In this document: in pieces, positions 1,827 to 51,759 of the stretch
How positions within the stretch are numbered: the first letter of the stretch is position 1
Layout of the letters: every line of letters begins with the position of its first letter
Source: Eledone cirrhosa
Taxonomy: Eukaryota
Length of the DNA: 64,000 bases
Direction of reading: 5' to 3'
NCBI GenBank assembly: GCA_964016885.1
Contig: OZ024740.1
Coordinates: 256,494,001 to 256,558,000, forward strand
Translations under genes and position numbers: made by a program
Notes under the pieces: model-generated
What the model saw: the letters and a program-made list of their open reading frames with translations, nothing else
What the model was told of the DNA's origin: nothing
The model's database searches: none

Positions 1827-1945
<119 letters not shown>

Positions 1946-1988
1946 CGATATTAAATAAATGGAAACTATATTTATAAAACCATATTTA

Positions 1989-2050
1989 TTTCATTATATA
2001 TATTTCAGGGATATCATATTAAAAATATGGTATGCCTTCATCAGACAAAA
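1989..2050 (-). ncRNA. Type I hammerhead ribozyme in PLE 3' pLTR
   Basis: Minus: TTTTGT-CTGATGA-AGG...CCT-GAAA-TATATA-TA-ATGAAA. Confidence 0.7.
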
Positions 2051-3415
2051 TACAATATAAACAGTCTTATAAATAGATAGATTTGACATACCTTACACTT
2101 CAACTTCCATTTAAAAAGTTGATTTGGTAGTGAAAAATGTTAGGGACAGTTATAGAGAAAAAAAAAGAAAGAAAGAAAGAAAGCGAAGAAAAAGAAGAAA
2201 TGCATGCAACGAAAAACAGAGAGAGATAGATATAGAGAGATAGATAGAGAGAAGAAATTCATGTAAAGAAAAACAGAGAGAGATAGATAGAGAGAGAAAA
2301 AACAGAGGGAGATAGATAGAGAGAGAGAGAGAAAAGAGAGAGAGAGAGAGAAAAAATAGTGAGAGATAGATATAGATAGAGATAGAGAGAGAGAGAAAAA
2401 TAGGTAGTTGGGCACCAGTTGAATGACGTATCAATGATATATTTATTTCTTTATTTCTTTATTTAGTTCTAGTATTAAGGTAGAGAGAGATATATGTGGT
2501 TAGGAGAGAAAACAGCCGTTACATAGAGAGAAAAGAAAAATATCCAGAGATAAACGAGGCAGATTTAAAACATTATGTTTCATCAATCTAAAATATCAAT
2601 TCGTATGAATTAGGTATTATAATGTAAATATCAGTATTCATGAATGAGACACGTATCAATAATGTGTGAAAAATAATGATCATATGTCTAGTTTAAAATT
2701 CCTAGGTTTATAATCAGAACTGAGTTAAAAAACTGAGGTAAAAACTTAAAAAAAAATTGAAATACATAAGTATATATGCACTTTCATGAAAAAAGAAAAA
2801 GAAAATAGATGGTTATCCCAGATTCGATACTATAGACATCCATGTGAATTTACGTGATCAACTCTGCAAATTCCTATTTCACATGAAAACATTCTCATTG
2901 TGCTATAAAAATTCTAGTATACATATATGTGTACATATACACCAATATATATAGAATCTACATTAATTTTAACAATAATATTCTTGTCTTTACTCTACAT
3001 GATTATCGTTCAAGCATAAAATAGACAACAGATATCAATATATCAATAAAAATATTAAAAATATTAAAAAATAAAACACAGTATGCCCCGCAAATCAACC
3101 ACAGAATCTACCCTTCAAATTTAATTGACAATATATTGCCAAGTTCATTATAAGCATCAGAATCAAAAGCATACAAAACCAAAATTATTCACCAAATCCT
3201 GTCTAGCAGAAATCATTCCAAAAGTTTAGGATACCCATTTGATCTACAGATGGTCTTATATTTATTATAGAAGTTTATCTAGTGTAAAATTTATTCGATA
3301 TATTTGGAGCATCATCTTTTAGGGTAGTTTAATTATTCATGAAGAAGGTTTAAAAAAAGAAATCGAAAGATTTATCGGCGAGTTTCATAATAATTACAAA
3401 TCATAAGTAAATATA

Positions 3416-5047
3416 CTACATTTTAAATTTATATTTATATTTAAAAGTTGAGTTCAATCTATGTCTGCAGCAACTGAATAAATTTGTCCGTAAATTAAGG
3501 GAATTTTTAGATTTTAGTATAAAGAATATCTCCTCCGCGCAGAGGTCACATGTCTCAGAGGATGAATTAAAAGGAATCCCTCTTGAGACTATATTCCAAG
3601 CCGTCGAATACCCAACGTTATCATGCTTAAGTTGCCAGAGTAAGCCTGATAGTGATGTTGAAGATTTTTTGCTTGGATCTGTGAAAGAATTCTTGTGGTT
3701 ATTATAGCGAAGTTTAAATTCTGTCGAGGTGGAACCAACATAGTTAAAAGAATTTAAGTCCGTTTTAACATTACAGTTGTATATTATATTTATAACTAAG
3801 CAATTGTTATTTAACGGACATTTAGATATATCTCTACAGTTACATTTGTTTACTTGGATATTATTTAGGCTATTATCGGTATTTTGGCTAGGTTTTAAAT
3901 TCCTATTATTTATTCTATTAATATTTTGTGCTAAATTTTTGGTGGATGAGTAAGTTAATTTTATAGTATGTCTATTGAAAATTGAGTGATACTTATGTGT
4001 TCTAGGGAAGCGATTATCAAGAGCATTAAAAAATAGTTTAGCGATGTGGGTTTTAATGTTTAGTGAGAAAGGGGGGGCAAACCATATTATATTTCTAGTT
4101 CTATTTCTTTTTTGGCTTTTGGAATTATTGAAATGCTTTCTATTATAGTTGTTAAAGTTGTTGCCGTAATTAAAATTGTTGTTATTTTGGTTAGTTTGTC
4201 TATTATTATCTATGTACATAATTTTATCACTATATCCTGCTCTAGCTAACGCTTCATTGTAATACTGGGCTTTTTCGTCGAAAATCTTTTTATTAGATGA
4301 GATTCTAGAGATACGTTTTTGAACAGAGTTCACTATAGTATTTTTAACAGATCTGGGGTGGTTAGAGTTAAAACTGACATAGTTTAAGTTTTCATTCAAC
4401 TTGTGAAATGGATAGTGAAGACATGTGTTGAGATTTAATGTTACATCTAGGAAATTGACTATTCTATGGTTATTCTCAATTTCTATTTTTAGATTAAAGT
4501 AATTAAAAAATTGTGTAATTTGTTTTCTTTTTCTATTTAGTTCAGAGTTATTATTTTCAATAAGTAAAAGCATGTCATCTCTATATAATCCTCCGGTAAC
4601 ACCGGGTATTTTCCTATGCAGCGAATTGATTATAAATAGGCCCACAAGGTCCGTTACCTGAGCTGAGTCGGATGATCCCATAGTAATGTCGAAATTGTTA
4701 TCTCTATTTGCTCTGGTCTATAGTTGGTTATTAAATTCTATCAATGTTTTCCTAGCCGATAATATAATGTGCATTTCATTGCTAGTTAGGTCTGTATGTT
4801 TGAATGCGTAATTTAGTGCCTTATTTAGTAGATTAGGGGTAATAGATGAATAATAGTTAGCAATATCTAGTTGAATAAATTTATTATTATTGTTATATTT
4901 AATTTCTTTAAACCACTCAACAACCTCTCCAGTTCCCTTCCACAAGCTCAAGTTAGGTAAACAATTCAAGTTTTTAATTTGCTGTATCACCCTGTCTAGA
5001 ATGTTTTTGCTAAGTTTACCCGGGTCAGATTTTGATGGTGCAATCAA
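3416..5047 (-). pseudogene. PLE reverse transcriptase + GIY-YIG endonuclease (Naiad-like), one in-frame stop, N-terminus missing
   Basis: ORFs 4718-5047 and 3416-4681 share a frame. Motifs: LDIANYYSSI, MGSSDS, LYRDD, VNFLDVTL, linker CNCRDISKCP, IIYNC...NYVGST...LRYNNH, CDLCAEE. Confidence 0.9.
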
Positions 5048-16789: not shown

Positions 16790-17255
16790 TTACTGTTTTT
16801 CGAGAATTAGTAGTTATAAAGGAGGTTTTCTAGTTGGCTGTTATTAAGTCCGCAGGCCATGATCAGAGCGTCGTCTTTGTACAGTTACCTGCCTATGCTA
16901 CGGATTGCTTCCGTTAGTTTACTTAGGAGGTTCAAGCCGACAACGTCCGTAATTTGGTTGGAGTCACTAGACACCATTGTAATATCAAAGCTACCTAGTC
17001 TATTTTGTCTCTCCCAAATTTACCGTCGAATTCTAGTAGTGTTTTTCTAGAAACTAAGATGATGTCAACTTCCTTTCTTGTGAGGCTTGACCTGTTCATG
17101 GCTGAGATCAATGCCTTGTTTAAGATGACTGGTGATATTCAGGCATAGTAGTTTGCAATGTCGAGTTGGACGAATCGAATTTCTGACTTGGTTTCAATGC
17201 TGGAGAACCAGTCAATAACCTCTCTAGTACAAGACGACAGGCTGAGTTTTGTCCT
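16790..17255 (-). mobile_element. PLE RT fragment related to 3416-5047
   Basis: Minus frame EVIDWFSSI...FVQLDIANYY...FDITMVSSDSNQITDVVG...LYKDD, with stops. Confidence 0.75.
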
Positions 17256-18502: not shown

Positions 18503-20876
18503 AATCCTGATAAAAATAATAGCATATATAAACGAAACTCTAATAATTCAAACAACCATACGCCAAACAAATTGAGGAAAAGAACTAGAACTAAATCAGT
18601 CATATGGTTCCCCCCTCTGCTTCGGTAGAACGCCAATTGCAAAATTATTCTTTAATGCTTTGGACACCTCTTTCCCTACTCAACATAAATACCATTCCAT
18701 TTTTAATAGACACACCATTAAATTGTCTTATTCTACAACTATGAATATGGCCCAAAACATTGCTAAATTAAACACTAAAATTCTAAAGCAGAATCAGCAT
18801 AATGACCTTAATAATAGCGTTAACATAAATGATAATAAACCAAAATGTAATTGTAGAAATAAAATTGACTGTCCTCTGCAAAATAATTGTCTAGATAGTA
18901 ATTTGGTTTATAAATGCACCGTAAAAACTGATTACAACACATACAACTACATAGGATCGACTTCTACATTTAAAGCAAGATTTGCGAACCATAAATGCTC
19001 ATTTTCGAACTCAAGGTGGAAATCATCCACATCTTTATCACAGCTTATATGGTCATTAAAAGAGAAGAATTTAAAGTAGTCAAATTTTTGGACAAAACTT
19101 CGGAATACTGGAGTTTACCGCAACTCAAGTATATCAAGTATTATCAATTATTAATAATTATGAGACCTTAATTAACAAAAAAAATTAATTATTCTCTAAT
19201 TGCCTTCATAAAGCTTTATCTACATTTCAAGCCTCCCATAAGACCAGGAAAAAGCACTAGGACACTAAACTTGGTCCTTAGACCTACATAATCAACAGTT
19301 GAAAATCTTAATGGCTTAATCTTAATGCTTTATTTTATAACTGTCTATAGAAGAAATAACGTTTGATTGAATGACACTTGTTTAATAACATGCTGACACG
19401 TTGATATACATAACATAATATTATTAACTTTCATCCATACCGTTATTTCTCTACATTTATTTTTCTATCTATGTTTTAAATATAGTTCAAATATCCAACC
19501 TGTAAACTTTTATGGAACTTATTTCAAACTGTCAATCATTCATGCGTTTACACTCCTTTATTTATATATATGTATTCAACTTTTGCATGTTTTTAAATAT
19601 ACCTACCTTTATTTTTCTATCTATGTTTTTAATATAGTTTAAATATCCAACCTGTGAATTTTTACGGACCATATTTTGAACTGTGAATCATTCATGCGTT
19701 TACACTCTTTTATATATATGTATGTATTTAACTTTCGCATGTTTGAATCTATTATATAAGATTATAATCGTTATCATTCACCAAAAGTGTGCTGTCTCAT
19801 TAATACTTAATATATCTCTCTATACCTAATTTTTTTTTGCAATTATGTATATATTCTATAATAACATAATCATATTATTAGTCACGTATATCTCAGCTTT
19901 TGGTTTCTTGCATCTATATCTATAGTGTACAATAACTTATTCATAATTACCGTTTCGGTTTAACGCTATATATAGTTTGTGCAAATATAGATATATTGTA
20001 CAATAACACATTTTTATTTAGAGTTCTTTCCTCCCATGAAGCTAGATCTAATATAGAGATCTAATATAATATAATTGTTTCTACTTTAGGCACAAGGCCA
20101 GCAATTATCCAGTGCATTACTGGTTAATTTATTACGATAATTGCACACATATATATGTAAATATATGTGGCTGAAAACTATGCGTTAATCATTACACTTT
20201 AAACACTGTATCTACTTGACAATAAATTGTTCGATATTTCTAACAATAACTACTTCATAAGTTTGACATACCGAAAATGTTGACACTCTTACAGGTAATT
20301 TTTGTTAAGCGTTACATTTTAAGGTAATATTCAACAGTGTAAATTTTCCTTTCGCGGGCCAAGTAAATCCTTTAACTTTGTTTTCATTAGATTCAGAATT
20401 TTAGAAATGTAACAATTTAAAAAAAAATAAAATAAAATTTATAAAATTAATAAATATAAATAACCACCAACTTTTAAAAACACAAAATTTTGATTCCTCA
20501 CCCGTAAATAACATAAATTAAATATTTTGAAACAACCGTTTAGTCCTTAAGGGGAAAAAATATTCTGCATAAATTACTCCCCTTTATCTTTCCCTCTCTT
20601 TAAGCATATATCAGTTGCCTTCATGGACTGTAATAAAATTATAATTCCAGAGATGTCTTCCTCGATAACCATAACTTGTAGTATCCCACATTTTAAAATC
20701 TCTATAACTGTTACATTAAGCAACGTTTTTCTTACTCATACATTCTCTATTGAATTTATTACGTTTTCGCATTTTCTCATTATTAAGGTATAAATGTTGA
20801 GTTTTCTCATAGGTTAATCATTACCTTGATTAAATCTTCACCATCTAACATCACAGGGTATGTCATGTATCATTAT

Positions 20877-33828: not shown

Positions 33829-33862
33829 TTCACACACACACACACACACATACACACACATA

Positions 33863-33946
<84 letters not shown>

Positions 33947-33951
<5 letters not shown>

Positions 33952-36900
33952 AATTAAGTTAAAGATGTACATCCATATATGTATACTGAAATACTAGTAT
34001 GTATATGAATACACACACGTATACATATGTAGGTGTACCAAGTTTTTTCACTGGTCACTTTACTGTGAGTGGCCAGCTATTCTGTATGTAAACACACAGA
34101 CAAACCGGTTTTTAGAGTCATACTGGTTTTTGAGGAAACACCTCTCCTCTATTCTCCAGAAAGCCAGACAAGGAATATTGAACTAGTTTCGTTGTTGTTA
34201 CAACTCATCAGCAATATTTACCTATCTTCCGGCCTCTCTAGAGAATCGTAAAAGCACATATCGTTATATGCTTTTTCTATGAAAATTAGTAGTGGGCAGA
34301 CTAATTTGCATAGAGTGTGAGTAAGTACCGGTTCAACGGAGACGATAAAAACAAATAACGAAACGAAATTAAATTTCGTTTCGTTTGTAACTCACTTTTG
34401 TATGACTGACGCTTAAACAATTAAGTTAAAGATGTACATCCATATATGTATACTGAAATACTAGTATGTATATGAATACACACACGTATACATATGTAGG
34501 TGTACCAAGTTTTTTCACTGGTCACTTTACTGTGAGTGGCCAGCTATTCTGTATGTAAACACACAGACAAACCGGTTTTTAGAGTCATACTGGTTTTTGA
34601 GGAAACACCTCTCCTCTATTCTCCAGAAAGCCAGACAAGGAATATTGAACTAGTTTCGTTGTTGTTACAACTCATCAGCAATATTTACCTATCTTCCGGC
34701 CTCTCTAGAGAATCGTAAAAGCACATATCGTTATATGCTTTTTCTATGAAAATTAGTAGTGGGCAGACTAATTTGCATAGAGTGTGAGTAAGTACCGGTT
34801 CAACGGAGACGATAAAAACAAATAACGAAACGAAATTAAATTTCGTTTCGTTTGTAACTCACTTTTGTATGACTGACGCTTAAACAATTAAGTTAAAGAT
34901 GTACATCCATATATGTATACTGAAATACTAGTATGTATATGAATACACACACGTATACATATGTAGGTGTACCAAGTTTTTTCACTGGTCACTTTACTGT
35001 GAGTGGCCAGCTATTCTGTATGTAAACACACAGACAAACCGGTTTTTAGAGTCATACTGGTTTTTGAGGAAACACCTCTCCTCTATTCTCCAGAAAGCCA
35101 GACAAGGAATATTGAACTAGTTTCGTTGTTGTTACAACTCATCAGCAATATTTACCTATCTTCCGGCCTCTCTAGAGAATCGTAAAAGCACATATCGTTA
35201 TATGCTTTTTCTATGAAAATTAGTAGTGGGCAGACTAATTTGCATAGAGTGTGAGTAAGTACCGGTTCAACGGAGACGATAAAAACAAATAACGAAACGA
35301 AATTAAATTTCGTTTCGTTTGTAACTCACTTTTGTATGACTGACGCTTAAACAATTAAGTTAAAGATGTACATCCATATATGTATACTGAAATACTAGTA
35401 TGTATATGAATACACACACGTATACATATGTAGGTGTACCAAGTTTTTTCACTGGTCACTTTACTGTGAGTGGCCAGCTATTCTGTATGTAAACACACAG
35501 ACAAACCGGTTTTTAGAGTCATACTGGTTTTTGAGGAAACACCTCTCCTCTATTCTCCAGAAAGCCAGACAAGGAATATTGAACTAGTTTCGTTGTTGTT
35601 ACAACTCATCAGCAATATTTACCTATCTTCCGGCCTCTCTAGAGAATCGTAAAAGCACATATCGTTATATGCTTTTTCTATGAAAATTAGTAGTGGGCAG
35701 ACTAATTTGCATAGAGTGTGAGTAAGTACCGGTTCAACGGAGACGATAAAAACAAATAACGAAACGAAATTAAATTTCGTTTCGTTTGTAACTCACTTTT
35801 GTATGACTGACGCTTAAACAATTAAGTTAAAGATGTACATCCATATATGTATACTGAAATACTAGTATGTATATGAATACACACACGTATACATATGTAG
35901 GTGTACCAAGTTTTTTCACTGGTCACTTTACTGTGAGTGGCCAGCTATTCTGTATGTAAACACACAGACAAACCGGTTTTTAGAGTCATACTGGTTTTTG
36001 AGGAAACACCTCTCCTCTATTCTCCAGAAAGCCAGACAAGGAATATTGAACTAGTTTCGTTGTTGTTACAACTCATCAGCAATATTTACCTATCTTCCGG
36101 CCTCTCTAGAGAATCGTAAAAGCACATATCGTTATATGCTTTTTCTATGAAAATTAGTAGTGGGCAGACTAATTTGCATAGAGTGTGAGTAAGTACCGGT
36201 TCAACGGAGACGATAAAAACAAATAACGAAACGAAATTAAATTTCGTTTCGTTTGTAACTCACTTTTGTATGACTGACGCTTAAACAATTAAGTTAAAGA
36301 TGTACATCCATATATGTATACTGAAATACTAGTATGTATATGAATACACACACGTATACATATGTAGGTGTACCAAGTTTTTTCACTGGTCACTTTACTG
36401 TGAGTGGCCAGCTATTCTGTATGTAAACACACAGACAAACCGGTTTTTAGAGTCATACTGGTTTTTGAGGAAACACCTCTCCTCTATTCTCCAGAAAGCC
36501 AGACAAGGAATATTGAACTAGTTTCGTTGTTGTTACAACTCATCAGCAATATTTACCTATCTTCCGGCCTCTCTAGAGAATCGTAAAAGCACATATCGTT
36601 ATATGCTTTTTCTATGAAAATTAGTAGTGGGCAGACTAATTTGCATAGAGTGTGAGTAAGTACCGGTTCAACGGAGACGATAAAAACAAATAACGAAACG
36701 AAATTAAATTTCGTTTCGTTTGTAACTCACTTTTGTATGACTGACGCTTAAACAATTAAGTTAAAGATGTACATCCATATATGTATACTGAAATACTAGT
36801 ATGTATATGAATACACACACGTATACATATGTAGGTGTACCAAGTTTTTTCACTGGTCACTTTACTGTGAGTGGCCAGCTATTCTGTATGTAAACACACA

Positions 36901-38011
36901 GACAAACCGGTTTTTAGAGTCATACTGGTTTTTGAGGAAACACCTCTCCTCTATTCTCCAGAAAGCCAGACAAGGAATATTGAACTAGTTTCGTTGTTGT
37001 TACAACTCATCAGCAATATTTACCTATCTTCCGGCCTCTCTAGAGAATCGTAAAAGCACATATCGTTATATGCTTTTTCTATGAAAATTAGTAGTGGGCA
37101 GACTAATTTGCATAGAGTGTGAGTAAGTACCGGTTCAACGGAGACGATAAAAACAAATAACGAAACGAAATTAAATTTCGTTTCGTTTGTAACTCACTTT
37201 TGTATGACTGACGCTTAAACAATTAAGTTAAAGATGTACATCCATATATGTATACTGAAATACTAGTATGTATATGAATACACACACGTATACATATGTA
37301 GGTGTACCAAGTTTTTTCACTGGTCACTTTACTGTGAGTGGCCAGCTATTCTGTATGTAAACACACAGACAAACCGGTTTTTAGAGTCATACTGGTTTTT
37401 GAGGAAACACCTCTCCTCTATTCTCCAGAAAGCCAGACAAGGAATATTGAACTAGTTTCGTTGTTGTTACAACTCATCAGCAATATTTACCTATCTTCCG
37501 GCCTCTCTAGAGAATCGTAAAAGCACATATCGTTATATGCTTTTTCTATGAAAATTAGTAGTGGGCAGACTAATTTGCATAGAGTGTGAGTAAGTACCGG
37601 TTCAACGGAGACGATAAAAACAAATAACGAAACGAAATTAAATTTCGTTTCGTTTGTAACTCACTTTTGTATGACTGACGCTTAAACAATTAAGTTAAAG
37701 ATGTACATCCATATATGTATACTGAAATACTAGTATGTATATGAATACACACACGTATACATATGTAGGTGTACCAAGTTTTTTCACTGGTCACTTTACT
37801 GTGAGTGGCCAGCTATTCTGTATGTAAACACACAGACAAACCGGTTTTTAGAGTCATACTGGTTTTTGAGGAAACACCTCTCCTCTATTCTCCAGAAAGC
37901 CAGACAAGGAATATTGAACTAGTTTCGTTGTTGTTACAACTCATCAGCAATATTTACCTATCTTCCGGCCTCTCTAGAGAATCGTAAAAGCACATATCGT
38001 TATATGCTTTT
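33947..38011 (-). repeat. 467-bp hammerhead satellite, left block (8.7 units, ribozyme on minus)
   Basis: Exact 467-bp period; 9 HHR copies, the leftmost at 34174-34218; starts directly after (TA)n. Confidence 0.97.
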
Positions 38012-41000
38012 GTGAAAAAACTTGGTACACCTACATATGTATACGTGTGTGTATTCATATACATACTAGTATTTCAGTATACATATATGGATGTACATCT
38101 TTAACTTAATTGTTTAAGCGTCAGTCATACAAAAGTGAGTTACAAACGAAACGAAATTTAATTTCGTTTCGTTATTTGTTTTTATCGTCTCCGTTGAACC
38201 GGTACTTACTCACACTCTATGCAAATTAGTCTGCCCACTACTAATTTTCATAGAAAAAGCATATAACGATATGTGCTTTTACGATTCTCTAGAGAGGCCG
38301 GAAGATAGGTAAATATTGCTGATGAGTTGTAACAACAACGAAACTAGTTCAATATTCCTTGTCTGGCTTTCTGGAGAATAGAGGAGAGGTGTTTCCTCAA
38401 AAACCAGTATGACTCTAAAAACCGGTTTGTCTGTGTGTTTACATACAGAATAGCTGGCCACTCACAGTAAAGTGACCAGTGAAAAAACTTGGTACACCTA
38501 CATATGTATACGTGTGTGTATTCATATACATACTAGTATTTCAGTATACATATATGGATGTACATCTTTAACTTAATTGTTTAAGCGTCAGTCATACAAA
38601 AGTGAGTTACAAACGAAACGAAATTTAATTTCGTTTCGTTATTTGTTTTTATCGTCTCCGTTGAACCGGTACTTACTCACACTCTATGCAAATTAGTCTG
38701 CCCACTACTAATTTTCATAGAAAAAGCATATAACGATATGTGCTTTTACGATTCTCTAGAGAGGCCGGAAGATAGGTAAATATTGCTGATGAGTTGTAAC
38801 AACAACGAAACTAGTTCAATATTCCTTGTCTGGCTTTCTGGAGAATAGAGGAGAGGTGTTTCCTCAAAAACCAGTATGACTCTAAAAACCGGTTTGTCTG
38901 TGTGTTTACATACAGAATAGCTGGCCACTCACAGTAAAGTGACCAGTGAAAAAACTTGGTACACCTACATATGTATACGTGTGTGTATTCATATACATAC
39001 TAGTATTTCAGTATACATATATGGATGTACATCTTTAACTTAATTGTTTAAGCGTCAGTCATACAAAAGTGAGTTACAAACGAAACGAAATTTAATTTCG
39101 TTTCGTTATTTGTTTTTATCGTCTCCGTTGAACCGGTACTTACTCACACTCTATGCAAATTAGTCTGCCCACTACTAATTTTCATAGAAAAAGCATATAA
39201 CGATATGTGCTTTTACGATTCTCTAGAGAGGCCGGAAGATAGGTAAATATTGCTGATGAGTTGTAACAACAACGAAACTAGTTCAATATTCCTTGTCTGG
39301 CTTTCTGGAGAATAGAGGAGAGGTGTTTCCTCAAAAACCAGTATGACTCTAAAAACCGGTTTGTCTGTGTGTTTACATACAGAATAGCTGGCCACTCACA
39401 GTAAAGTGACCAGTGAAAAAACTTGGTACACCTACATATGTATACGTGTGTGTATTCATATACATACTAGTATTTCAGTATACATATATGGATGTACATC
39501 TTTAACTTAATTGTTTAAGCGTCAGTCATACAAAAGTGAGTTACAAACGAAACGAAATTTAATTTCGTTTCGTTATTTGTTTTTATCGTCTCCGTTGAAC
39601 CGGTACTTACTCACACTCTATGCAAATTAGTCTGCCCACTACTAATTTTCATAGAAAAAGCATATAACGATATGTGCTTTTACGATTCTCTAGAGAGGCC
39701 GGAAGATAGGTAAATATTGCTGATGAGTTGTAACAACAACGAAACTAGTTCAATATTCCTTGTCTGGCTTTCTGGAGAATAGAGGAGAGGTGTTTCCTCA
39801 AAAACCAGTATGACTCTAAAAACCGGTTTGTCTGTGTGTTTACATACAGAATAGCTGGCCACTCACAGTAAAGTGACCAGTGAAAAAACTTGGTACACCT
39901 ACATATGTATACGTGTGTGTATTCATATACATACTAGTATTTCAGTATACATATATGGATGTACATCTTTAACTTAATTGTTTAAGCGTCAGTCATACAA
40001 AAGTGAGTTACAAACGAAACGAAATTTAATTTCGTTTCGTTATTTGTTTTTATCGTCTCCGTTGAACCGGTACTTACTCACACTCTATGCAAATTAGTCT
40101 GCCCACTACTAATTTTCATAGAAAAAGCATATAACGATATGTGCTTTTACGATTCTCTAGAGAGGCCGGAAGATAGGTAAATATTGCTGATGAGTTGTAA
40201 CAACAACGAAACTAGTTCAATATTCCTTGTCTGGCTTTCTGGAGAATAGAGGAGAGGTGTTTCCTCAAAAACCAGTATGACTCTAAAAACCGGTTTGTCT
40301 GTGTGTTTACATACAGAATAGCTGGCCACTCACAGTAAAGTGACCAGTGAAAAAACTTGGTACACCTACATATGTATACGTGTGTGTATTCATATACATA
40401 CTAGTATTTCAGTATACATATATGGATGTACATCTTTAACTTAATTGTTTAAGCGTCAGTCATACAAAAGTGAGTTACAAACGAAACGAAATTTAATTTC
40501 GTTTCGTTATTTGTTTTTATCGTCTCCGTTGAACCGGTACTTACTCACACTCTATGCAAATTAGTCTGCCCACTACTAATTTTCATAGAAAAAGCATATA
40601 ACGATATGTGCTTTTACGATTCTCTAGAGAGGCCGGAAGATAGGTAAATATTGCTGATGAGTTGTAACAACAACGAAACTAGTTCAATATTCCTTGTCTG
40701 GCTTTCTGGAGAATAGAGGAGAGGTGTTTCCTCAAAAACCAGTATGACTCTAAAAACCGGTTTGTCTGTGTGTTTACATACAGAATAGCTGGCCACTCAC
40801 AGTAAAGTGACCAGTGAAAAAACTTGGTACACCTACATATGTATACGTGTGTGTATTCATATACATACTAGTATTTCAGTATACATATATGGATGTACAT
40901 CTTTAACTTAATTGTTTAAGCGTCAGTCATACAAAAGTGAGTTACAAACGAAACGAAATTTAATTTCGTTTCGTTATTTGTTTTTATCGTCTCCGTTGAA

Positions 41001-44000
41001 CCGGTACTTACTCACACTCTATGCAAATTAGTCTGCCCACTACTAATTTTCATAGAAAAAGCATATAACGATATGTGCTTTTACGATTCTCTAGAGAGGC
41101 CGGAAGATAGGTAAATATTGCTGATGAGTTGTAACAACAACGAAACTAGTTCAATATTCCTTGTCTGGCTTTCTGGAGAATAGAGGAGAGGTGTTTCCTC
41201 AAAAACCAGTATGACTCTAAAAACCGGTTTGTCTGTGTGTTTACATACAGAATAGCTGGCCACTCACAGTAAAGTGACCAGTGAAAAAACTTGGTACACC
41301 TACATATGTATACGTGTGTGTATTCATATACATACTAGTATTTCAGTATACATATATGGATGTACATCTTTAACTTAATTGTTTAAGCGTCAGTCATACA
41401 AAAGTGAGTTACAAACGAAACGAAATTTAATTTCGTTTCGTTATTTGTTTTTATCGTCTCCGTTGAACCGGTACTTACTCACACTCTATGCAAATTAGTC
41501 TGCCCACTACTAATTTTCATAGAAAAAGCATATAACGATATGTGCTTTTACGATTCTCTAGAGAGGCCGGAAGATAGGTAAATATTGCTGATGAGTTGTA
41601 ACAACAACGAAACTAGTTCAATATTCCTTGTCTGGCTTTCTGGAGAATAGAGGAGAGGTGTTTCCTCAAAAACCAGTATGACTCTAAAAACCGGTTTGTC
41701 TGTGTGTTTACATACAGAATAGCTGGCCACTCACAGTAAAGTGACCAGTGAAAAAACTTGGTACACCTACATATGTATACGTGTGTGTATTCATATACAT
41801 ACTAGTATTTCAGTATACATATATGGATGTACATCTTTAACTTAATTGTTTAAGCGTCAGTCATACAAAAGTGAGTTACAAACGAAACGAAATTTAATTT
41901 CGTTTCGTTATTTGTTTTTATCGTCTCCGTTGAACCGGTACTTACTCACACTCTATGCAAATTAGTCTGCCCACTACTAATTTTCATAGAAAAAGCATAT
42001 AACGATATGTGCTTTTACGATTCTCTAGAGAGGCCGGAAGATAGGTAAATATTGCTGATGAGTTGTAACAACAACGAAACTAGTTCAATATTCCTTGTCT
42101 GGCTTTCTGGAGAATAGAGGAGAGGTGTTTCCTCAAAAACCAGTATGACTCTAAAAACCGGTTTGTCTGTGTGTTTACATACAGAATAGCTGGCCACTCA
42201 CAGTAAAGTGACCAGTGAAAAAACTTGGTACACCTACATATGTATACGTGTGTGTATTCATATACATACTAGTATTTCAGTATACATATATGGATGTACA
42301 TCTTTAACTTAATTGTTTAAGCGTCAGTCATACAAAAGTGAGTTACAAACGAAACGAAATTTAATTTCGTTTCGTTATTTGTTTTTATCGTCTCCGTTGA
42401 ACCGGTACTTACTCACACTCTATGCAAATTAGTCTGCCCACTACTAATTTTCATAGAAAAAGCATATAACGATATGTGCTTTTACGATTCTCTAGAGAGG
42501 CCGGAAGATAGGTAAATATTGCTGATGAGTTGTAACAACAACGAAACTAGTTCAATATTCCTTGTCTGGCTTTCTGGAGAATAGAGGAGAGGTGTTTCCT
42601 CAAAAACCAGTATGACTCTAAAAACCGGTTTGTCTGTGTGTTTACATACAGAATAGCTGGCCACTCACAGTAAAGTGACCAGTGAAAAAACTTGGTACAC
42701 CTACATATGTATACGTGTGTGTATTCATATACATACTAGTATTTCAGTATACATATATGGATGTACATCTTTAACTTAATTGTTTAAGCGTCAGTCATAC
42801 AAAAGTGAGTTACAAACGAAACGAAATTTAATTTCGTTTCGTTATTTGTTTTTATCGTCTCCGTTGAACCGGTACTTACTCACACTCTATGCAAATTAGT
42901 CTGCCCACTACTAATTTTCATAGAAAAAGCATATAACGATATGTGCTTTTACGATTCTCTAGAGAGGCCGGAAGATAGGTAAATATTGCTGATGAGTTGT
43001 AACAACAACGAAACTAGTTCAATATTCCTTGTCTGGCTTTCTGGAGAATAGAGGAGAGGTGTTTCCTCAAAAACCAGTATGACTCTAAAAACCGGTTTGT
43101 CTGTGTGTTTACATACAGAATAGCTGGCCACTCACAGTAAAGTGACCAGTGAAAAAACTTGGTACACCTACATATGTATACGTGTGTGTATTCATATACA
43201 TACTAGTATTTCAGTATACATATATGGATGTACATCTTTAACTTAATTGTTTAAGCGTCAGTCATACAAAAGTGAGTTACAAACGAAACGAAATTTAATT
43301 TCGTTTCGTTATTTGTTTTTATCGTCTCCGTTGAACCGGTACTTACTCACACTCTATGCAAATTAGTCTGCCCACTACTAATTTTCATAGAAAAAGCATA
43401 TAACGATATGTGCTTTTACGATTCTCTAGAGAGGCCGGAAGATAGGTAAATATTGCTGATGAGTTGTAACAACAACGAAACTAGTTCAATATTCCTTGTC
43501 TGGCTTTCTGGAGAATAGAGGAGAGGTGTTTCCTCAAAAACCAGTATGACTCTAAAAACCGGTTTGTCTGTGTGTTTACATACAGAATAGCTGGCCACTC
43601 ACAGTAAAGTGACCAGTGAAAAAACTTGGTACACCTACATATGTATACGTGTGTGTATTCATATACATACTAGTATTTCAGTATACATATATGGATGTAC
43701 ATCTTTAACTTAATTGTTTAAGCGTCAGTCATACAAAAGTGAGTTACAAACGAAACGAAATTTAATTTCGTTTCGTTATTTGTTTTTATCGTCTCCGTTG
43801 AACCGGTACTTACTCACACTCTATGCAAATTAGTCTGCCCACTACTAATTTTCATAGAAAAAGCATATAACGATATGTGCTTTTACGATTCTCTAGAGAG
43901 GCCGGAAGATAGGTAAATATTGCTGATGAGTTGTAACAACAACGAAACTAGTTCAATATTCCTTGTCTGGCTTTCTGGAGAATAGAGGAGAGGTGTTTCC

Positions 44001-47000
44001 TCAAAAACCAGTATGACTCTAAAAACCGGTTTGTCTGTGTGTTTACATACAGAATAGCTGGCCACTCACAGTAAAGTGACCAGTGAAAAAACTTGGTACA
44101 CCTACATATGTATACGTGTGTGTATTCATATACATACTAGTATTTCAGTATACATATATGGATGTACATCTTTAACTTAATTGTTTAAGCGTCAGTCATA
44201 CAAAAGTGAGTTACAAACGAAACGAAATTTAATTTCGTTTCGTTATTTGTTTTTATCGTCTCCGTTGAACCGGTACTTACTCACACTCTATGCAAATTAG
44301 TCTGCCCACTACTAATTTTCATAGAAAAAGCATATAACGATATGTGCTTTTACGATTCTCTAGAGAGGCCGGAAGATAGGTAAATATTGCTGATGAGTTG
44401 TAACAACAACGAAACTAGTTCAATATTCCTTGTCTGGCTTTCTGGAGAATAGAGGAGAGGTGTTTCCTCAAAAACCAGTATGACTCTAAAAACCGGTTTG
44501 TCTGTGTGTTTACATACAGAATAGCTGGCCACTCACAGTAAAGTGACCAGTGAAAAAACTTGGTACACCTACATATGTATACGTGTGTGTATTCATATAC
44601 ATACTAGTATTTCAGTATACATATATGGATGTACATCTTTAACTTAATTGTTTAAGCGTCAGTCATACAAAAGTGAGTTACAAACGAAACGAAAATTTAA
44701 TTTCGTTTCGTTATTTGTTTTTATCGTCTCCGTTGAAACGGTACTTACTCACACTCTATGCAAATTAGTCTGCCCACTACTAATTTTCATAGAAAAAGCA
44801 TATAACGATATGTGCTTTTACGATTCTCTAGAGAGGCCGGAAGATAGGTAAATATTGCTGATGAGTTGTAACAACAACGAAACTAGTTCAATATTCCTTG
44901 TCTGGCTTTCTGGAGAATAGAGGAGAGGTGTTTCCTCAAAAACCAGTATGACTCTAAAAACCGGTTTGTCTGTGTGTTTACATACAGAATAGCTGGCCAC
45001 TCACAGTAAAGTGACCAGTGAAAAAACTTGGTACACCTACATATGTATACGTGTGTGTATTCATATACATACTAGTATTTCAGTATACATATATGGATGT
45101 ACATCTTTAACTTAATTGTTTAAGCGTCAGTCATACAAAAGTGAGTTACAAACGAAACGAAATTTAATTTCGTTTCGTTATTTGTTTTTATCGTCTCCGT
45201 TGAACCGGTACTTACTCACACTCTATGCAAATTAGTCTGCCCACTACTAATTTTCATAGAAAAAGCATATAACGATATGTGCTTTTACGATTCTCTAGAG
45301 AGGCCGGAAGATAGGTAAATATTGCTGATGAGTTGTAACAACAACGAAACTAGTTCAATATTCCTTGTCTGGCTTTCTGGAGAATAGAGGAGAGGTGTTT
45401 CCTCAAAAACCAGTATGACTCTAAAAACCGGTTTGTCTGTGTGTTTACATACAGAATAGCTGGCCACTCACAGTAAAGTGACCAGTGAAAAAACTTGGTA
45501 CACCTACATATGTATACGTGTGTGTATTCATATACATACTAGTATTTCAGTATACATATATGGATGTACATCTTTAACTTAATTGTTTAAGCGTCAGTCA
45601 TACAAAAGTGAGTTACAAACGAAACGAAATTTAATTTCGTTTCGTTATTTGTTTTTATCGTCTCCGTTGAACCGGTACTTACTCACACTCTATGCAAATT
45701 AGTCTGCCCACTACTAATTTTCATAGAAAAAGCATATAACGATATGTGCTTTTACGATTCTCTAGAGAGGCCGGAAGATAGGTAAATATTGCTGATGAGT
45801 TGTAACAACAACGAAACTAGTTCAATATTCCTTGTCTGGCTTTCTGGAGAATAGAGGAGAGGTGTTTCCTCAAAAACCAGTATGACTCTAAAAACCGGTT
45901 TGTCTGTGTGTTTACATACAGAATAGCTGGCCACTCACAGTAAAGTGACCAGTGAAAAAACTTGGTACACCTACATATGTATACGTGTGTGTATTCATAT
46001 ACATACTAGTATTTCAGTATACATATATGGATGTACATCTTTAACTTAATTGTTTAAGCGTCAGTCATACAAAAGTGAGTTACAAACGAAACGAAATTTA
46101 ATTTCGTTTCGTTATTTGTTTTTATCGTCTCCGTTGAACCGGTACTTACTCACACTCTATGCAAATTAGTCTGCCCACTACTAATTTTCATAGAAAAAGC
46201 ATATAACGATATGTGCTTTTACGATTCTCTAGAGAGGCCGGAAGATAGGTAAATATTGCTGATGAGTTGTAACAACAACGAAACTAGTTCAATATTCCTT
46301 GTCTGGCTTTCTGGAGAATAGAGGAGAGGTGTTTCCTCAAAAACCAGTATGACTCTAAAAAACCGGTTTGTCTGTGTGTTTACATACAGAATAGCTGGCC
46401 ACTCACAGTAAAGTGACCAGTGAAAAAACTTGGTACACCTACATATGTATACGTGTGTGTATTCATATACATACTAGTATTTCAGTATACATATATGGAT
46501 GTACATCTTTAACTTAATTGTTTAAGCGTCAGTCATACAAAAGTGAGTTACAAACGAAACGAAATTTAATTTCGTTTCGTTATTTGTTTTTATCGTCTCC
46601 GTTGAACCGGTACTTACTCACACTCTATGCAAATTAGTCTGCCCACTACTAATTTTCATAGAAAAAGCATATAACGATATGTGCTTTTACGATTCTCTAG
46701 AGAGGCCGGAAGATAGGTAAATATTGCTGATGAGTTGTAACAACAACGAAACTAGTTCAATATTCCTTGTCTGGCTTTCTGGAGAATAGAGGAGAGGTGT
46801 TTCCTCAAAAACCAGTATGACTCTAAAAACCGGTTTGTCTGTGTGTTTACATACAGAATAGCTGGCCACTCACAGTAAAGTGACCAGTGAAAAAACTTGG
46901 TACACCTACATATGTATACGTGTGTGTATTCATATACATACTAGTATTTCAGTATACATATATGGATGTACATCTTTAACTTAATTGTTTAAGCGTCAGT

Positions 47001-50000
47001 CATACAAAAGTGAGTTACAAACGAAACGAAATTTAATTTCGTTTCGTTATTTGTTTTTATCGTCTCCGTTGAACCGGTACTTACTCACACTCTATGCAAA
47101 TTAGTCTGCCCACTACTAATTTTCATAGAAAAAGCATATAACGATATGTGCTTTTACGATTCTCTAGAGAGGCCGGAAGATAGGTAAATATTGCTGATGA
47201 GTTGTAACAACAACGAAACTAGTTCAATATTCCTTGTCTGGCTTTCTGGAGAATAGAGGAGAGGTGTTTCCTCAAAAACCAGTATGACTCTAAAAACCGG
47301 TTTGTCTGTGTGTTTACATACAGAATAGCTGGCCACTCACAGTAAAGTGACCAGTGAAAAAACTTGGTACACCTACATATGTATACGTGTGTGTATTCAT
47401 ATACATACTAGTATTTCAGTATACATATATGGATGTACATCTTTAACTTAATTGTTTAAGCGTCAGTCATACAAAAGTGAGTTACAAACGAAACGAAATT
47501 TAATTTCGTTTCGTTATTTGTTTTTATCGTCTCCGTTGAACCGGTACTTACTCACACTCTATGCAAATTAGTCTGCCCACTACTAATTTTCATAGAAAAA
47601 GCATATAACGATATGTGCTTTTACGATTCTCTAGAGAGGCCGGAAGATAGGTAAATATTGCTGATGAGTTGTAACAACAACGAAACTAGTTCAATATTCC
47701 TTGTCTGGCTTTCTGGAGAATAGAGGAGAGGTGTTTCCTCAAAAACCAGTATGACTCTAAAAACCGGTTTGTCTGTGTGTTTACATACAGAATAGCTGGC
47801 CACTCACAGTAAAGTGACCAGTGAAAAAACTTGGTACACCTACATATGTATACGTGTGTGTATTCATATACATACTAGTATTTCAGTATACATATATGGA
47901 TGTACATCTTTAACTTAATTGTTTAAGCGTCAGTCATACAAAGTGAGTTACAAACGAAACGAAATTTAATTTCGTTTCGTTATTTGTTTTTATCGTCTCC
48001 GTTGAACCGGTACTTACTCACACTCTATGCAAATTAGTCTGCCCACTACTAATTTTCATAGAAAAAGCATATAACGATATGTGCTTTTACGATTCTCTAG
48101 AGAGGCCGGAAGATAGGTAAATATTGCTGATGAGTTGTAACAACAACGAAACTAGTTCAATATTCCTTGTCTGGCTTTCTGGAGAATAGAGGAGAGGTGT
48201 TTCCTCAAAAACCAGTATGACTCTAAAAACCGGTTTGTCTGTGTGTTTACATACAGAATAGCTGGCCACTCACAGTAAAGTGACCAGTGAAAAAACTTGG
48301 TACACCTACATATGTATACGTGTGTGTATTCATATACATACTAGTATTTCAGTATACATATATGGATGTACATCTTTAACTTAATTGTTTAAGCGTCAGT
48401 CATACAAAAGTGAGTTACAAACGAAACGAAATTTAATTTCGTTTCGTTATTTGTTTTTATCGTCTCCGTTGAACCGGTACTTACTCACACTCTATGCAAA
48501 TTAGTCTGCCCACTACTAATTTTCATAGAAAAAGCATATAACGATATGTGCTTTTACGATTCTCTAGAGAGGCCGGAAGATAGGTAAATATTGCTGATGA
48601 GTTGTAACAACAACGAAACTAGTTCAATATTCCTTGTCTGGCTTTCTGGAGAATAGAGGAGAGGTGTTTCCTCAAAAACCAGTATGACTCTAAAAACCGG
48701 TTTGTCTGTGTGTTTACATACAGAATAGCTGGCCACTCACAGTAAAGTGACCAGTGAAAAAACTTGGTACACCTACATATGTATACGTGTGTGTATTCAT
48801 ATACATACTAGTATTTCAGTATACATATATGGATGTACATCTTTAACTTAATTGTTTAAGCGTCAGTCATACAAAAGTGAGTTACAAACGAAACGAAATT
48901 TAATTTCGTTTCGTTATTTGTTTTTATCGTCTCCGTTGAACCGGTACTTACTCACACTCTATGCAAATTAGTCTGCCCACTACTAATTTTCATAGAAAAA
49001 GCATATAACGATATGTGCTTTTACGATTCTCTAGAGAGGCCGGAAGATAGGTAAATATGCTGATGAGTTGTAACAACAACGAAACTAGTTCAATATTCCT
49101 TGTCTGGCTTTCTGGAGAATAGAGGAGAGGTGTTTCCTCAAAAACCAGTATGACTCTAAAAACCGGTTTGTCTGTGTGTTTACATACAGAATAGCTGGCC
49201 ACTCACAGTAAAGTGACCAGTGAAAAAACTTGGTACACCTACATATGTATACGTGTGTGTATTCATATACATACTAGTATTTCAGTATACATATATGGAT
49301 GTACATCTTTAACTTAATTGTTTAAGCGTCAGTCATACAAAAGTGAGTTACAAACGAAACGAAATTTAATTTCGTTTCGTTATTTGTTTTTATCGTCTCC
49401 GTTGAACCGGTACTTACTCACACTCTATGCAAATTAGTCTGCCCACTACTAATTTTCATAGAAAAAGCATATAACGATATGTGCTTTTACGATTCTCTAG
49501 AGAGGCCGGAAGATAGGTAAATATTGCTGATGAGTTGTAACAACAACGAAACTAGTTCAATATTCCTTGTCTGGCTTTCTGGAGAATAGAGGAGAGGTGT
49601 TTCCTCAAAAACCAGTATGACTCTAAAAACCGGTTTGTCTGTGTGTTTACATACAGAATAGCTGGCCACTCACAGTAAAGTGACCAGTGAAAAAACTTGG
49701 TACACCTACATATGTATACGTGTGTGTATTCATATACATACTAGTATTTCAGTATACATATATGGATGTACATCTTTAACTTAATTGTTTAAGCGTCAGT
49801 CATACAAAAGTGAGTTACAAACGAAACGAAATTTAATTTCGTTTCGTTATTTGTTTTTATCGTCTCCGTTGAACCGGTACTTACTCACACTCTATGCAAA
49901 TTAGTCTGCCCACTACTAATTTTCATAGAAAAAGCATATAACGATATGTGCTTTTACGATTCTCTAGAGAGGCCGGAAGATAGGTAAATATTGCTGATGA

Positions 50001-51721
50001 GTTGTAACAACAACGAAACTAGTTCAATATTCCTTGTCTGGCTTTCTGGAGAATAGAGGAGAGGTGTTTCCTCAAAAACCAGTATGACTCTAAAAACCGG
50101 TTTGTCTGTGTGTTTACATACAGAATAGCTGGCCACTCACAGTAAAGTGACCAGTGAAAAAACTTGGTACACCTACATATGTATACGTGTGTGTATTCAT
50201 ATACATACTAGTATTTCAGTATACATATATGGATGTACATCTTTAACTTAATTGTTTAAGCGTCAGTCATACAAAAGTGAGTTACAAACGAAACGAAATT
50301 TAATTTCGTTTCGTTATTTGTTTTTATCGTCTCCGTTGAACCGGTACTTACTCACACTCTATGCAAATTAGTCTGCCCACTACTAATTTTCATAGAAAAA
50401 GCATATAACGATATGTGCTTTTACGATTCTCTAGAGAGGCCGGAAGATAGGTAAATATTGCTGATGAGTTGTAACAACAACGAAACTAGTTCAATATTCC
50501 TTGTCTGGCTTTCTGGAGAATAGAGGAGAGGTGTTTCCTCAAAAACCAGTATGACTCTAAAAACCGGTTTGTCTGTGTGTTTACATACAGAATAGCTGGC
50601 CACTCACAGTAAAGTGACCAGTGAAAAAACTTGGTACACCTACATATGTATACGTGTGTGTATTCATATACATACTAGTATTTCAGTATACATATATGGA
50701 TGTACATCTTTAACTTAATTGTTTAAGCGTCAGTCATACAAAAGTGAGTTACAAACGAAACGAAATTTAATTTCGTTTCGTTATTTGTTTTTATCGTCTC
50801 CGTTGAACCGGTACTTACTCACACTCTATGCAAATTAGTCTGCCCACTACTAATTTTCATAGAAAAAGCATATAACGATATGTGCTTTTACGATTCTCTA
50901 GAGAGGCCGGAAGATAGGTAAATATTGCTGATGAGTTGTAACAACAACGAAACTAGTTCAATATTCCTTGTCTGGCTTTCTGGAGAATAGAGGAGAGGTG
51001 TTTCCTCAAAAACCAGTATGACTCTAAAAACCGGTTTGTCTGTGTGTTTACATACAGAATAGCTGGCCACTCACAGTAAAGTGACCAGTGAAAAAACTTG
51101 GTACACCTACATATGTATACGTGTGTGTATTCATATACATACTAGTATTTCAGTATACATATATGGATGTACATCTTTAACTTAATTGTTTAAGCGTCAG
51201 TCATACAAAAGTGAGTTACAAACGAAACGAAATTTAATTTCGTTTCGTTATTTGTTTTTATCGTCTCCGTTGAACCGGTACTTACTCACACTCTATGCAA
51301 ATTAGTCTGCCCACTACTAATTTTCATAGAAAAAGCATATAACGATATGTGCTTTTACGATTCTCTAGAGAGGCCGGAAGATAGGTAAATATTGCTGATG
51401 AGTTGTAACAACAACGAAACTAGTTCAATATTCCTTGTCTGGCTTTCTGGAGAATAGAGGAGAGGTGTTTCCTCAAAAACCAGTATGACTCTAAAAACCG
51501 GTTTGTCTGTGTGTTTACATACAGAATAGCTGGCCACTCACAGTAAAGTGACCAGTGAAAAAACTTGGTACACCTACATATGTATACGTGTGTGTATTCA
51601 TATACATACTAGTATTTCAGTATACATATATGGATGTACATCTTTAACTTAATTGTTTAAGCGTCAGTCATACAAAAGTGAGTTACAAACGAAACGAAAT
51701 TTAATTTCGTTTCGTTATTTG

Positions 51722-51728
<7 letters not shown>
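38012..51728 (+). repeat. 467-bp hammerhead satellite, right block (29.4 units, ribozyme on plus)
   Basis: Reverse complement of the left block; 29 HHR copies; ends directly in (TA)n. Confidence 0.97.
38312..38356 (+). ncRNA. Type I hammerhead ribozyme of the 467-bp unit (representative of 38 copies)
   Basis: AATATTG-CTGATGA-GTTGT(AACA)ACAAC-GAAA-CTAG-TT-CAATATT: 7-bp stem I, intact core, 5-bp stem II, palindromic minimal stem III, GUU site after 38349. Confidence 0.9.

Positions 51729-51759
<31 letters not shown>

Follow-up and report, generated by a model that had tools for sequence, protein, structure and literature searches.

Head-to-head arrays of a hammerhead-bearing repeat in Eledone cirrhosa and their probable origin by twin-primed copying of an RNA circle

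How do two arrays of one and the same 467-bp unit come to stand back to back between tracts of (TA)n? The question is raised by a 64,000-nucleotide stretch of the Eledone cirrhosa genome (GenBank assembly GCA_964016885.1, contig OZ024740.1, forward-strand positions 256,494,001 to 256,558,000; the whole of it is called the window below), in which the two arrays are reverse complements of each other and each copy carries one type I hammerhead ribozyme motif. The back-to-back arrays are a real feature of the window. They are best read as a retrozyme without long terminal repeats (non-LTR retrozyme), both arms of which were twin-primed and rolled round a monomeric RNA circle by a Penelope-like reverse transcriptase (RT)/endonuclease, a reading to which a probability of about 0.68 was assigned.

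Array bounds were taken from Tandem Repeats Finder (period 467), and unit positions, given below as phases, were numbered from the predicted cleavage site GUU/C. The layout of the window is as follows:

33860–33946, no strand: left (TA)n target tract, (AT)44, preceded by (CA)15 at 33831–33860
33947–38011, minus strand: left arm, 8.7 copies of the 467-bp unit, running from phase 373 at the junction to phase 234 at the outer end (site A)
38011–38012, no strand: head-to-head (5'-to-5') junction, 0 nt microhomology, insert-free
38012–51728, plus strand: right arm, 29.4 copies of the 467-bp unit, running from phase 130 at the junction to phase 303 at the outer end (site B)
38111–38116, plus strand: site A of the first plus copy (unit 229–234), putative start site 1 of reverse transcription, recurring every 467 bp
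38112–38185, plus strand: A-B "tail" of about 70 nt, which folds, with a 13-bp hairpin at 38145–38173
38180–38185, plus strand: site B of the first plus copy (unit 298–303), putative start site 2 of reverse transcription
38312–38356, plus strand: type I hammerhead motif of the first plus copy, dimer-type, predicted cut between 38349 and 38350
51729–51755, no strand: right (TA)n target tract, (TA)15

The original prediction, which had been made from the letters of the window, placed a junction at 38011/38012 that joins the two blocks 5'-to-5' in ribozyme sense. Arm coordinates and lengths (4065 bp with 9 ribozyme motifs on the left, 13717 bp with 29 motifs on the right) were reproduced exactly, and recomputation of the phases from the cleavage site gave 373 to 234 and 130 to 303, as claimed. 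Copies within the left arm are free of variants; five single-copy variants (four 1-nt indels and one substitution) were found in the right arm.

The unit has 35% GC, and the 38 motifs of the window follow one another at 467-bp spacing. Each motif is built from a 7-bp stem I, a CUGAUGA core, a 5-bp stem II, GAAA, a short palindromic stem III and the GUU/C site. In fold predictions, two unit copies co-fold in a double-hammerhead-like arrangement, a form described for metazoan motifs (PMC4209133; this and all other cited papers are represented here by their accessible parts). A compensatory swap in stem II, U-A to A-U, is present in other subfamilies of the genome, and the whole unit folds much better than its shuffles (z −9.0). 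Rfam gave no match in the window at the gathering score. No open frame of at least 200 aa was found inside the array and a frame for RT and GIY-YIG endonuclease is absent from the element, which is thus non-autonomous. The array ends pass directly into (TA)n, with no LTR seen. By all sequence features tested, the element is a non-LTR retrozyme.

The layout was subsequently followed through the genome. An exact ribozyme pattern gave 8,775 matches in 3.0 Gb; among the first 100, the pattern lay on both strands within 6 kb at 12 places, and all of these were divergent when read by eye, which bears out for other loci the polarity proposed for the window. A one-unit query returned 261 matches from 35 scored of 391 candidates, and at most of the 35 places examined a minus block was followed by a plus block. 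The exact junction of the B end with (TA) was matched 1,875 times in the genome, and that of the A end in one subfamily 165 times. The array had been taken for the product of a one-off event; instead, its layout is the usual one for insertions of a family whose ribozyme copies number in the thousands. As the layout recurs genome-wide, a fold-back artefact is unlikely.

Sampled places in the same genome are referred to by L numbers. A position-ordered sample, chosen against similarity bias, was composed of the first 40 B junctions listed and 20 of the first 26 A junctions, with junctions already sampled or lying on the same stretch skipped. The 39 B-anchored loci (one duplicate removed) had their partner end at A in 30 cases, at B in none and elsewhere in two, and seven had no partner; for the 20 A-anchored loci the partner end was B in 13, A in one (L106), elsewhere in two and missing in four. 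Of the 44 two-arm loci of this position-ordered sample whose ends both lay at A or B, 43 thus had one of each. A script count of 65 elements with both ends at A or B, including one duplicate pair, gave 34 AB, 30 BA, 1 AA and 0 BB, and 12 further loci anchored on the ribozyme gave eight AB, one ending elsewhere and three single-arm. Irrespective of pairing, 61 of 63 exact ends into (TA)n (from 48 sources not selected on ends) lay at one of the two sites, 29 at 229–235 (A) and 32 at 298–304 (B).

Sites A and B offer a TA match of only 1–3 nt, and 13 positions with at least 4 nt of TA alternation sit elsewhere in the unit. Priming by (TA) microhomology alone was ruled out, as the ends avoid these 13 better-matching positions. 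Ends fixed at the cleavage site were likewise ruled out by the end tally and the arm phases. It had been proposed that both ends of a break primed internally on the RNA: the priming indeed lies away from the cleavage site, but arbitrary (TA) microhomology at a chance break gives way to two fixed sites about 70 nt apart. At other loci, junction ends are scattered and outer ends are fixed at A and B. A TTGTTT(TT)A motif, named as the stop of both outer ends, is present in the window, but does not hold as a general rule, the commonest A end elsewhere being 229, ahead of the motif (16 of 29 A ends). Because the stretch between A and B folds, and by comparison with PMC11167929, we infer that this A-B tail is the counterpart of the Penelope tail and a candidate protein-recognition element.

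TA-like flanks on both sides were found for 62 of the 65 elements, most of which had been selected on one TA flank, so the (TA)n target suggested for the window extends to other loci; the exceptions are AT-rich and carry duplications. At targets other than (TA)n, duplications of 14 bp (L047), 12 bp (L061) and 11 bp (L051) were present, one of 13 bp was read by eye in L042, and that of L063 measured 11 bp by script and 16 bp by eye with end overlap. In all five loci the duplicated target sequence overlaps the element ends by a few bases. Duplications of 11–16 bp point to a staggered endonuclease cut and to Penelope-like enzymology, and at these sister loci they uphold the view that insertion was a single event. 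The target in the window is pure (TA)n, in which a duplication is not resolvable. In L048, L060, L067 and L103, both (TA)n flanks are interrupted by the same 6–20-bp periodic unit, as though several copies of the duplicated target had been made, either during insertion or later.

At the inner junctions of 22 near-identical loci, microhomology of 1–5 nt was present in 13, and microhomology of at least 2 nt in eight, compared with 18% in a random-join control. Inserts of 1–2 nt were found in five of the other junctions, two were blunt, and two were left unresolved by the script.

The evidence for copying of one molecule comes from allele distributions. In 58 two-arm loci (arms >100 bp), 214 alleles were singletons and 30 were partly shared, while arm-specific alleles were absent. 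Private alleles, defined as absent from every other sampled locus, were fixed in all covering copies of both arms in 18 of the 58 loci (32 alleles; for example 15/15 copies in L060 and 10/10 copies in L063). The fixation of a private allele throughout both inverted arms argues for a one-molecule bottleneck, which would most simply be a monomer circle. The unit of the window is the common young type without a private allele, so this test is silent for the window itself.

Arm lengths and cleavage-site passages were examined in 70 curated elements. More than one unit was contained in 91 of the 140 arms, and in both arms of 32 elements. Mean arm length was 1258 nt for A and 1260 nt for B; either arm may be longer (A in 30 of 70), and the two lengths are correlated (rho 0.38). 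The elements cross the cleavage site 366 times, with two nearby indels in the 161 passes checked. Singleton density falls with array length (rho −0.33). Lockstep polymerases, with equal arm lengths or a constant 70-nt phase offset, were rejected on the arm-length and phase data.

By analogy, the element appears to insert in the manner of Penelope, and the following course is proposed. Array transcripts would self-cleave as double hammerheads and be ligated to monomer circles, as in published retrozymes. A Penelope-like protein, probably a dimer, would bind the A-B tail and make a staggered cut of about 11–16 bp, the span of the duplications at sister loci, in (TA)n or AT-rich DNA. One 3'-OH would then start complementary DNA (cDNA) at A and the other at B, with either strand using either site, in keeping with the pairing observed. 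Each cDNA would circle the template by strand displacement; the lengths reached are roughly exponential, with a mean of about 1.26 kb. The two cDNA 3' ends would be joined with 0–5 nt of microhomology or a short insert, and second strands filled in, by a presumed repair pathway. Long arms may later change copy number by unequal exchange, the signature of which was found at two loci. Both target strands were cut and extended in vitro by a Penelope-like protein, which started at two internal sites on either side of the tail and for which a dimer is predicted (PMC11167929).

A bolder form of this reading is put forward tentatively, its chances being rated slightly below even: one dimer would sit on one circle with its active sites at A and B, kilobase satellites of up to tens of units, including this 17.8-kb one, would be born in one step, and two-site twin priming would be the general cause of the head-to-head inverted ends and one-sided tail of Penelope. 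Twin copying of one circle from both cut strands would explain both the origin of such satellites and the inverted ends of Penelope.

Several findings weigh against the circle reading or limit it. At singly covered positions a singleton is indistinguishable from an arm-specific allele. The end tally filtered very TA-like stretches at phases 140–210, where ends may be undercounted. The pairing rule is broken by the A/A locus L106; the complex locus L124 contains a small extra B/B-ended fragment uncounted by the script, and two A-ended divergent arms stand 950 bp apart in L046. Junction phases are no more than 20 nt apart in 10 of 47 loci, compared with 4.1 expected (p 0.007), as snap-back of a cDNA would give; hairpin-guided joining of two cDNA ends would give such an excess of near-palindromic junctions, too. 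Arm 5' ends at phases 1–25 number 15 against 7.4 expected (p 0.009, for a range of phases that was set post hoc), which may mean that part of the templates are linear after cleavage or that the enzyme stalls at the ligation site. In L046 (3873–6286) and L050 (1–7016) an arm switches midway to the alleles of another subfamily, through template switch between RNA molecules or gene conversion. Some partly shared allele occurs in eight of the 25 loci with at least four copies. L070x (30.6 copies) has 14 partly shared alleles with period 4 and 7 in one arm, and L098x (11.3 copies) has an allele in copies 3, 4, 6, 7, 9 and 10 of one arm only. The sampled loci contained no autonomous element whose terminal repeats are homologous to the unit, and a Penelope-like family treated below, named L064-type, has one pair of two tailed ends (B'/B') 3 kb apart and another 11 kb apart. 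No RNA run is listed as containing the unit; circle, cleavage and expression are unobserved.

The periodic alleles of L070x and L098x are the mark of unequal exchange after insertion. With growth after insertion at these two loci, copy number is an upper bound on laps round the template. The original count of 9 and 29 laps is therefore not retained for the window, given this later exchange in two of the longest arrays elsewhere and the lack of a private allele by which clonality of the window could be judged; its five singletons are neutral, in that they neither show nor exclude later growth.

Among the alternatives, the one that survives best, although unlikely, retains twin priming at the two sites, but takes the template to be a linear multimer, either uncleaved or cleaved in part, or a set of linear monomers between which the enzyme jumps; length would be gained mostly by later unequal crossing-over, and a circle would be unneeded. 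Donor singletons would in that case stay singletons, leaving no route to private alleles fixed in both arms, as in 18 of the 58 loci, and expansion of each arm from its own founder should leave arm-specific alleles, of which none was seen. The ratio of singletons to partly shared alleles (214 to 30) and the near absence of scars at the cleavage site also argue against it. A linear template would suit the higher-order repeats of L070x and L098x and the raised number of arm 5' ends a short way inside the cleavage site; moreover, unprocessed RNA was the dominant substrate in vitro, where hammerhead mutants were without effect on insertion (PMC11167929). Three of eight minor alleles shared across arms are equidistant from the 3' ends, as a heterogeneous multimer would give.

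Improbable, in turn, is a reading with a single priming event. The first cDNA would snap back, or an antisense template would prime itself; DNA would serve as template for the second arm, and the hairpin would be resolved by the endonuclease at the remaining site. Either arm may be the longer one, so both sites would need start and resolution roles, and 37 of the 47 junctions are not near-palindromic. The enriched remainder, several of them at hairpins of the unit (L034, L082, L100, L107), would be accounted for, as would the correlation of arm lengths; identical alleles in both arms are predicted as well, and the idea has been published for Penelope (PMC3846280). At L063 the longer arm has two junction-side alleles that are missing in all four copies of the other arm, which speaks against snap-back, although later duplication could explain it; in vitro, RNA templates the extension of both strands (PMC11167929). 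A mirrored-error test for snap-back was powerless, with the eight shared minor alleles mentioned above, three of them in register from the 3' ends.

For comparison at the level of reads, four of 24 listed sequencing runs were used. The independent run X1 contains loose ends into (TA)n exactly at A (38116) and B (38185), and its unit differs from that of the window at one site in nearly all depth. X21 gave 0 reads on the window. No run resembling this individual was found among the four compared, and none of them spans 38011/38012 or shows an empty allele. X4 and X6, whose labels name other organisms, each yielded a single contig of low depth on window positions 37788–38254; the closed contig of X4 (497 nt, 467+30) fits a circle or a low-depth tandem equally, and carry-over and transfer are likewise indistinguishable. 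The low-share presence of the unit in many organisms is no evidence of horizontal transfer.

An origin at the DNA level, by satellite spread through extrachromosomal DNA circles, break-induced fold-back or an assembly chimera at the junction, is highly improbable: the junction has no spanning read among the runs compared, four of the five variants in the window are 1-nt indels of the kind that long-read errors produce, and the locus pairs L094/L095 and L167/L168 look duplicated in the assembly, yet dozens of unlinked loci on many contigs repeat the polarity, the fixed A/B ends and the target duplications, X1 ends at the same two sites, the stem II change is compensatory across subfamilies, and a protein-coding Penelope-like family obeys the same rule.

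The genome is rich in Penelope-like elements, one endonuclease query having given 66,313 first-look candidates. The protein-coding family just mentioned, of L064 type, carries a hammerhead of its own, and its two ends, which lie 103 nt apart, both run into (TA)n. For 20 anchors at its tail-less end, a divergent partner was found at the tailed end in 12 (two seem to be duplicates), at the tail-less end in none, and nowhere within 7.5 kb in eight. This autonomous family follows the same end-pairing rule as the retrozyme. It was labelled by its RT motifs, an IVY..YIG core and C-terminal CxxC and CxH motifs, read by eye against PMC8557442, and by motifs, without a tree, it appears to be Penelope-like and Hydra-clade-like; the label "Neptune" was dropped. 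No Pfam family was assigned to the Penelope-like frames of L064 or of the window, and homologues of the L064 frame mostly carry PF26215 under uninformative names.

By BLAST, the terminal repeat of the L064-type family, the one family examined, has no similarity to the 467-bp unit, and none of the sampled fragments of Penelope-like elements has flanks similar to it. Two candidates for an autonomous partner were set aside: the Penelope-like element next to L064 was inserted separately and has another terminal repeat, and the 5.3-kb gap at C1:53–59 kb is a long interspersed nuclear element (LINE)-type element (endonuclease-RT) inserted into a retrozyme. In the window, positions 1828–4798 (minus strand) hold a remnant of another Penelope-like family, with RT and GIY-YIG-like frames at about 3455–4798 that are 35–52% identical to the L064 protein; further fragments lie at 16813–17087 and 18630–19209. 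A hammerhead-like motif is found near the 3' end of the remnant, which runs into (TA)59 at 1828–1945.

Further observations concern the unit and its relatives. The octamer ATGCAAAT at window 38219–38226 (unit 337–344), about 125 nt upstream of the predicted cut, is kept in related families and is possibly an internal promoter element; presumably it resembles a small nuclear RNA enhancer. Related retrozyme-like families, with 67–78% local identity and units of about 400–540 bp, are located at L116:1780–2330, L185:448–1050 and L189:6050–6200. They retain the palindromic stem III, the AATTTCGTTTCG hairpin arm ahead of the (TA)n end and the ATGCAAAT octamer, and their motifs occur also in L040, L053 and L128. 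A different hammerhead-like element forms a short head-to-head palindrome at L113:6470–6560 and at about 1700–1790 of the window, and the retrozyme arm of L113 begins at the predicted cut site of that palindrome. Within a unit at L036:5434–5563, about 130 bp of (CA)n have grown at CACAC, and an A-run has grown at an AAAAAA site beside the junction at L112:7070–7100; both suggest that the reverse transcriptase slipped on its template. At L182:2950–7710 a retrozyme arm is interrupted by an inserted LINE-type element, which has an open frame of 1040 aa, 5' repeats in tandem and a (GAT)n tail.

Twin priming on a circle bears on whether retrozyme arrays arise by reverse transcription round circular RNA or by unequal crossover, and on why Penelope-like elements end head-to-head with a one-sided tail. 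A non-coding substrate of 467 nt with thousands of young copies provides a genomic readout of paired starts, clonal arms and nearly scar-free passage of the cut site; circle, A-B tail and (TA)n target would also make a minimal substrate for an in vitro Penelope-like system. Some euchromatic satellites can, in this light, be products of single retrotransposition events.

Compared with the metazoan non-LTR retrozymes (PMC7229834; Li, Clavereau & Pollet 2026), the element shares the low-GC tandem unit with a type I hammerhead per copy, the lack of coding capacity, dispersed occurrence as dimers to large multimers, target duplications of more than 4 bp (here 11–16 bp) and co-occurrence with Penelope-like elements. 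Its 467-bp unit is slightly above the 150–450 bp of PMC7229834 and within the 51–972 bp of bioRxiv 10.64898/2026.07.22.740005. Circular RNA templates, tandem cDNA and Penelope-like mobilisers have been proposed for retrozymes (PMC4209133, PMC7229834, bioRxiv 10.64898/2026.07.22.740005), and local amplification by unequal crossover after insertion has been suggested for arrays (Li et al., bioRxiv 10.64898/2026.07.22.740005). Circular RNA and cleavage are demonstrated in published retrozymes, whereas here they are predicted from sequence. In the accessible parts of PMC7229834 and bioRxiv 10.64898/2026.07.22.740005, metazoan retrozymes are described as head-to-tail tandems only, with no mention of a divergent pair of arms, of ends that are fixed and paired or of (TA)n targets; that of bioRxiv 10.1101/2022.05.23.493040 holds nothing further on structure.

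With endonuclease-positive Penelope-like elements (PMC8557442) the element has in common an inverted, 5'-truncated head-to-head copy, a one-sided tail and (TA)n targets (Naiad, Hydra); duplications measure 8–10 bp in Adineta Penelope-like elements and 11–16 bp here. A hammerhead in the terminal repeat, two internal RT starts and extension of both strands in vitro are further likenesses (PMC4209133, PMC11167929), the pairing of the in vitro starts within one insertion being outside the scope of the accessible part of PMC11167929. Unlike Penelope-like elements, the retrozyme has no coding frame, its tail measures about 70 nt instead of 30–40 nt, and both arms are often multi-unit. The head-to-head repeats of Penelope have been explained by antisense self-priming (PMC3846280); as far as accessible, explanations in print of the inverted arm invoke this or endonuclease resolution, unlike the twin priming proposed here. 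No description of two-armed, A/B-paired, clonal retrozyme arrays was found in the literature, although subscription papers and supplements may contain one. The ingredients of the mechanism are already published as hypotheses or Penelope features; their combination for retrozymes appears new, as we found no paper on it.

A parallel outside these groups is the twin priming of L1, by which, as reportedly set out by Ostertag and Kazazian in 2001, both target 3' ends prime on one RNA and 5' inversions arise. L1 likewise has a 5'-to-5' junction with microhomology and a target duplication. It differs from the retrozyme in its poly(A) priming, which is absent here, and in its second start, which is left to chance complementarity in L1 and lies at a fixed site here; and whereas the two arms of an L1 inversion are adjacent, non-overlapping parts of the element, those of the retrozyme repeat the same unit.

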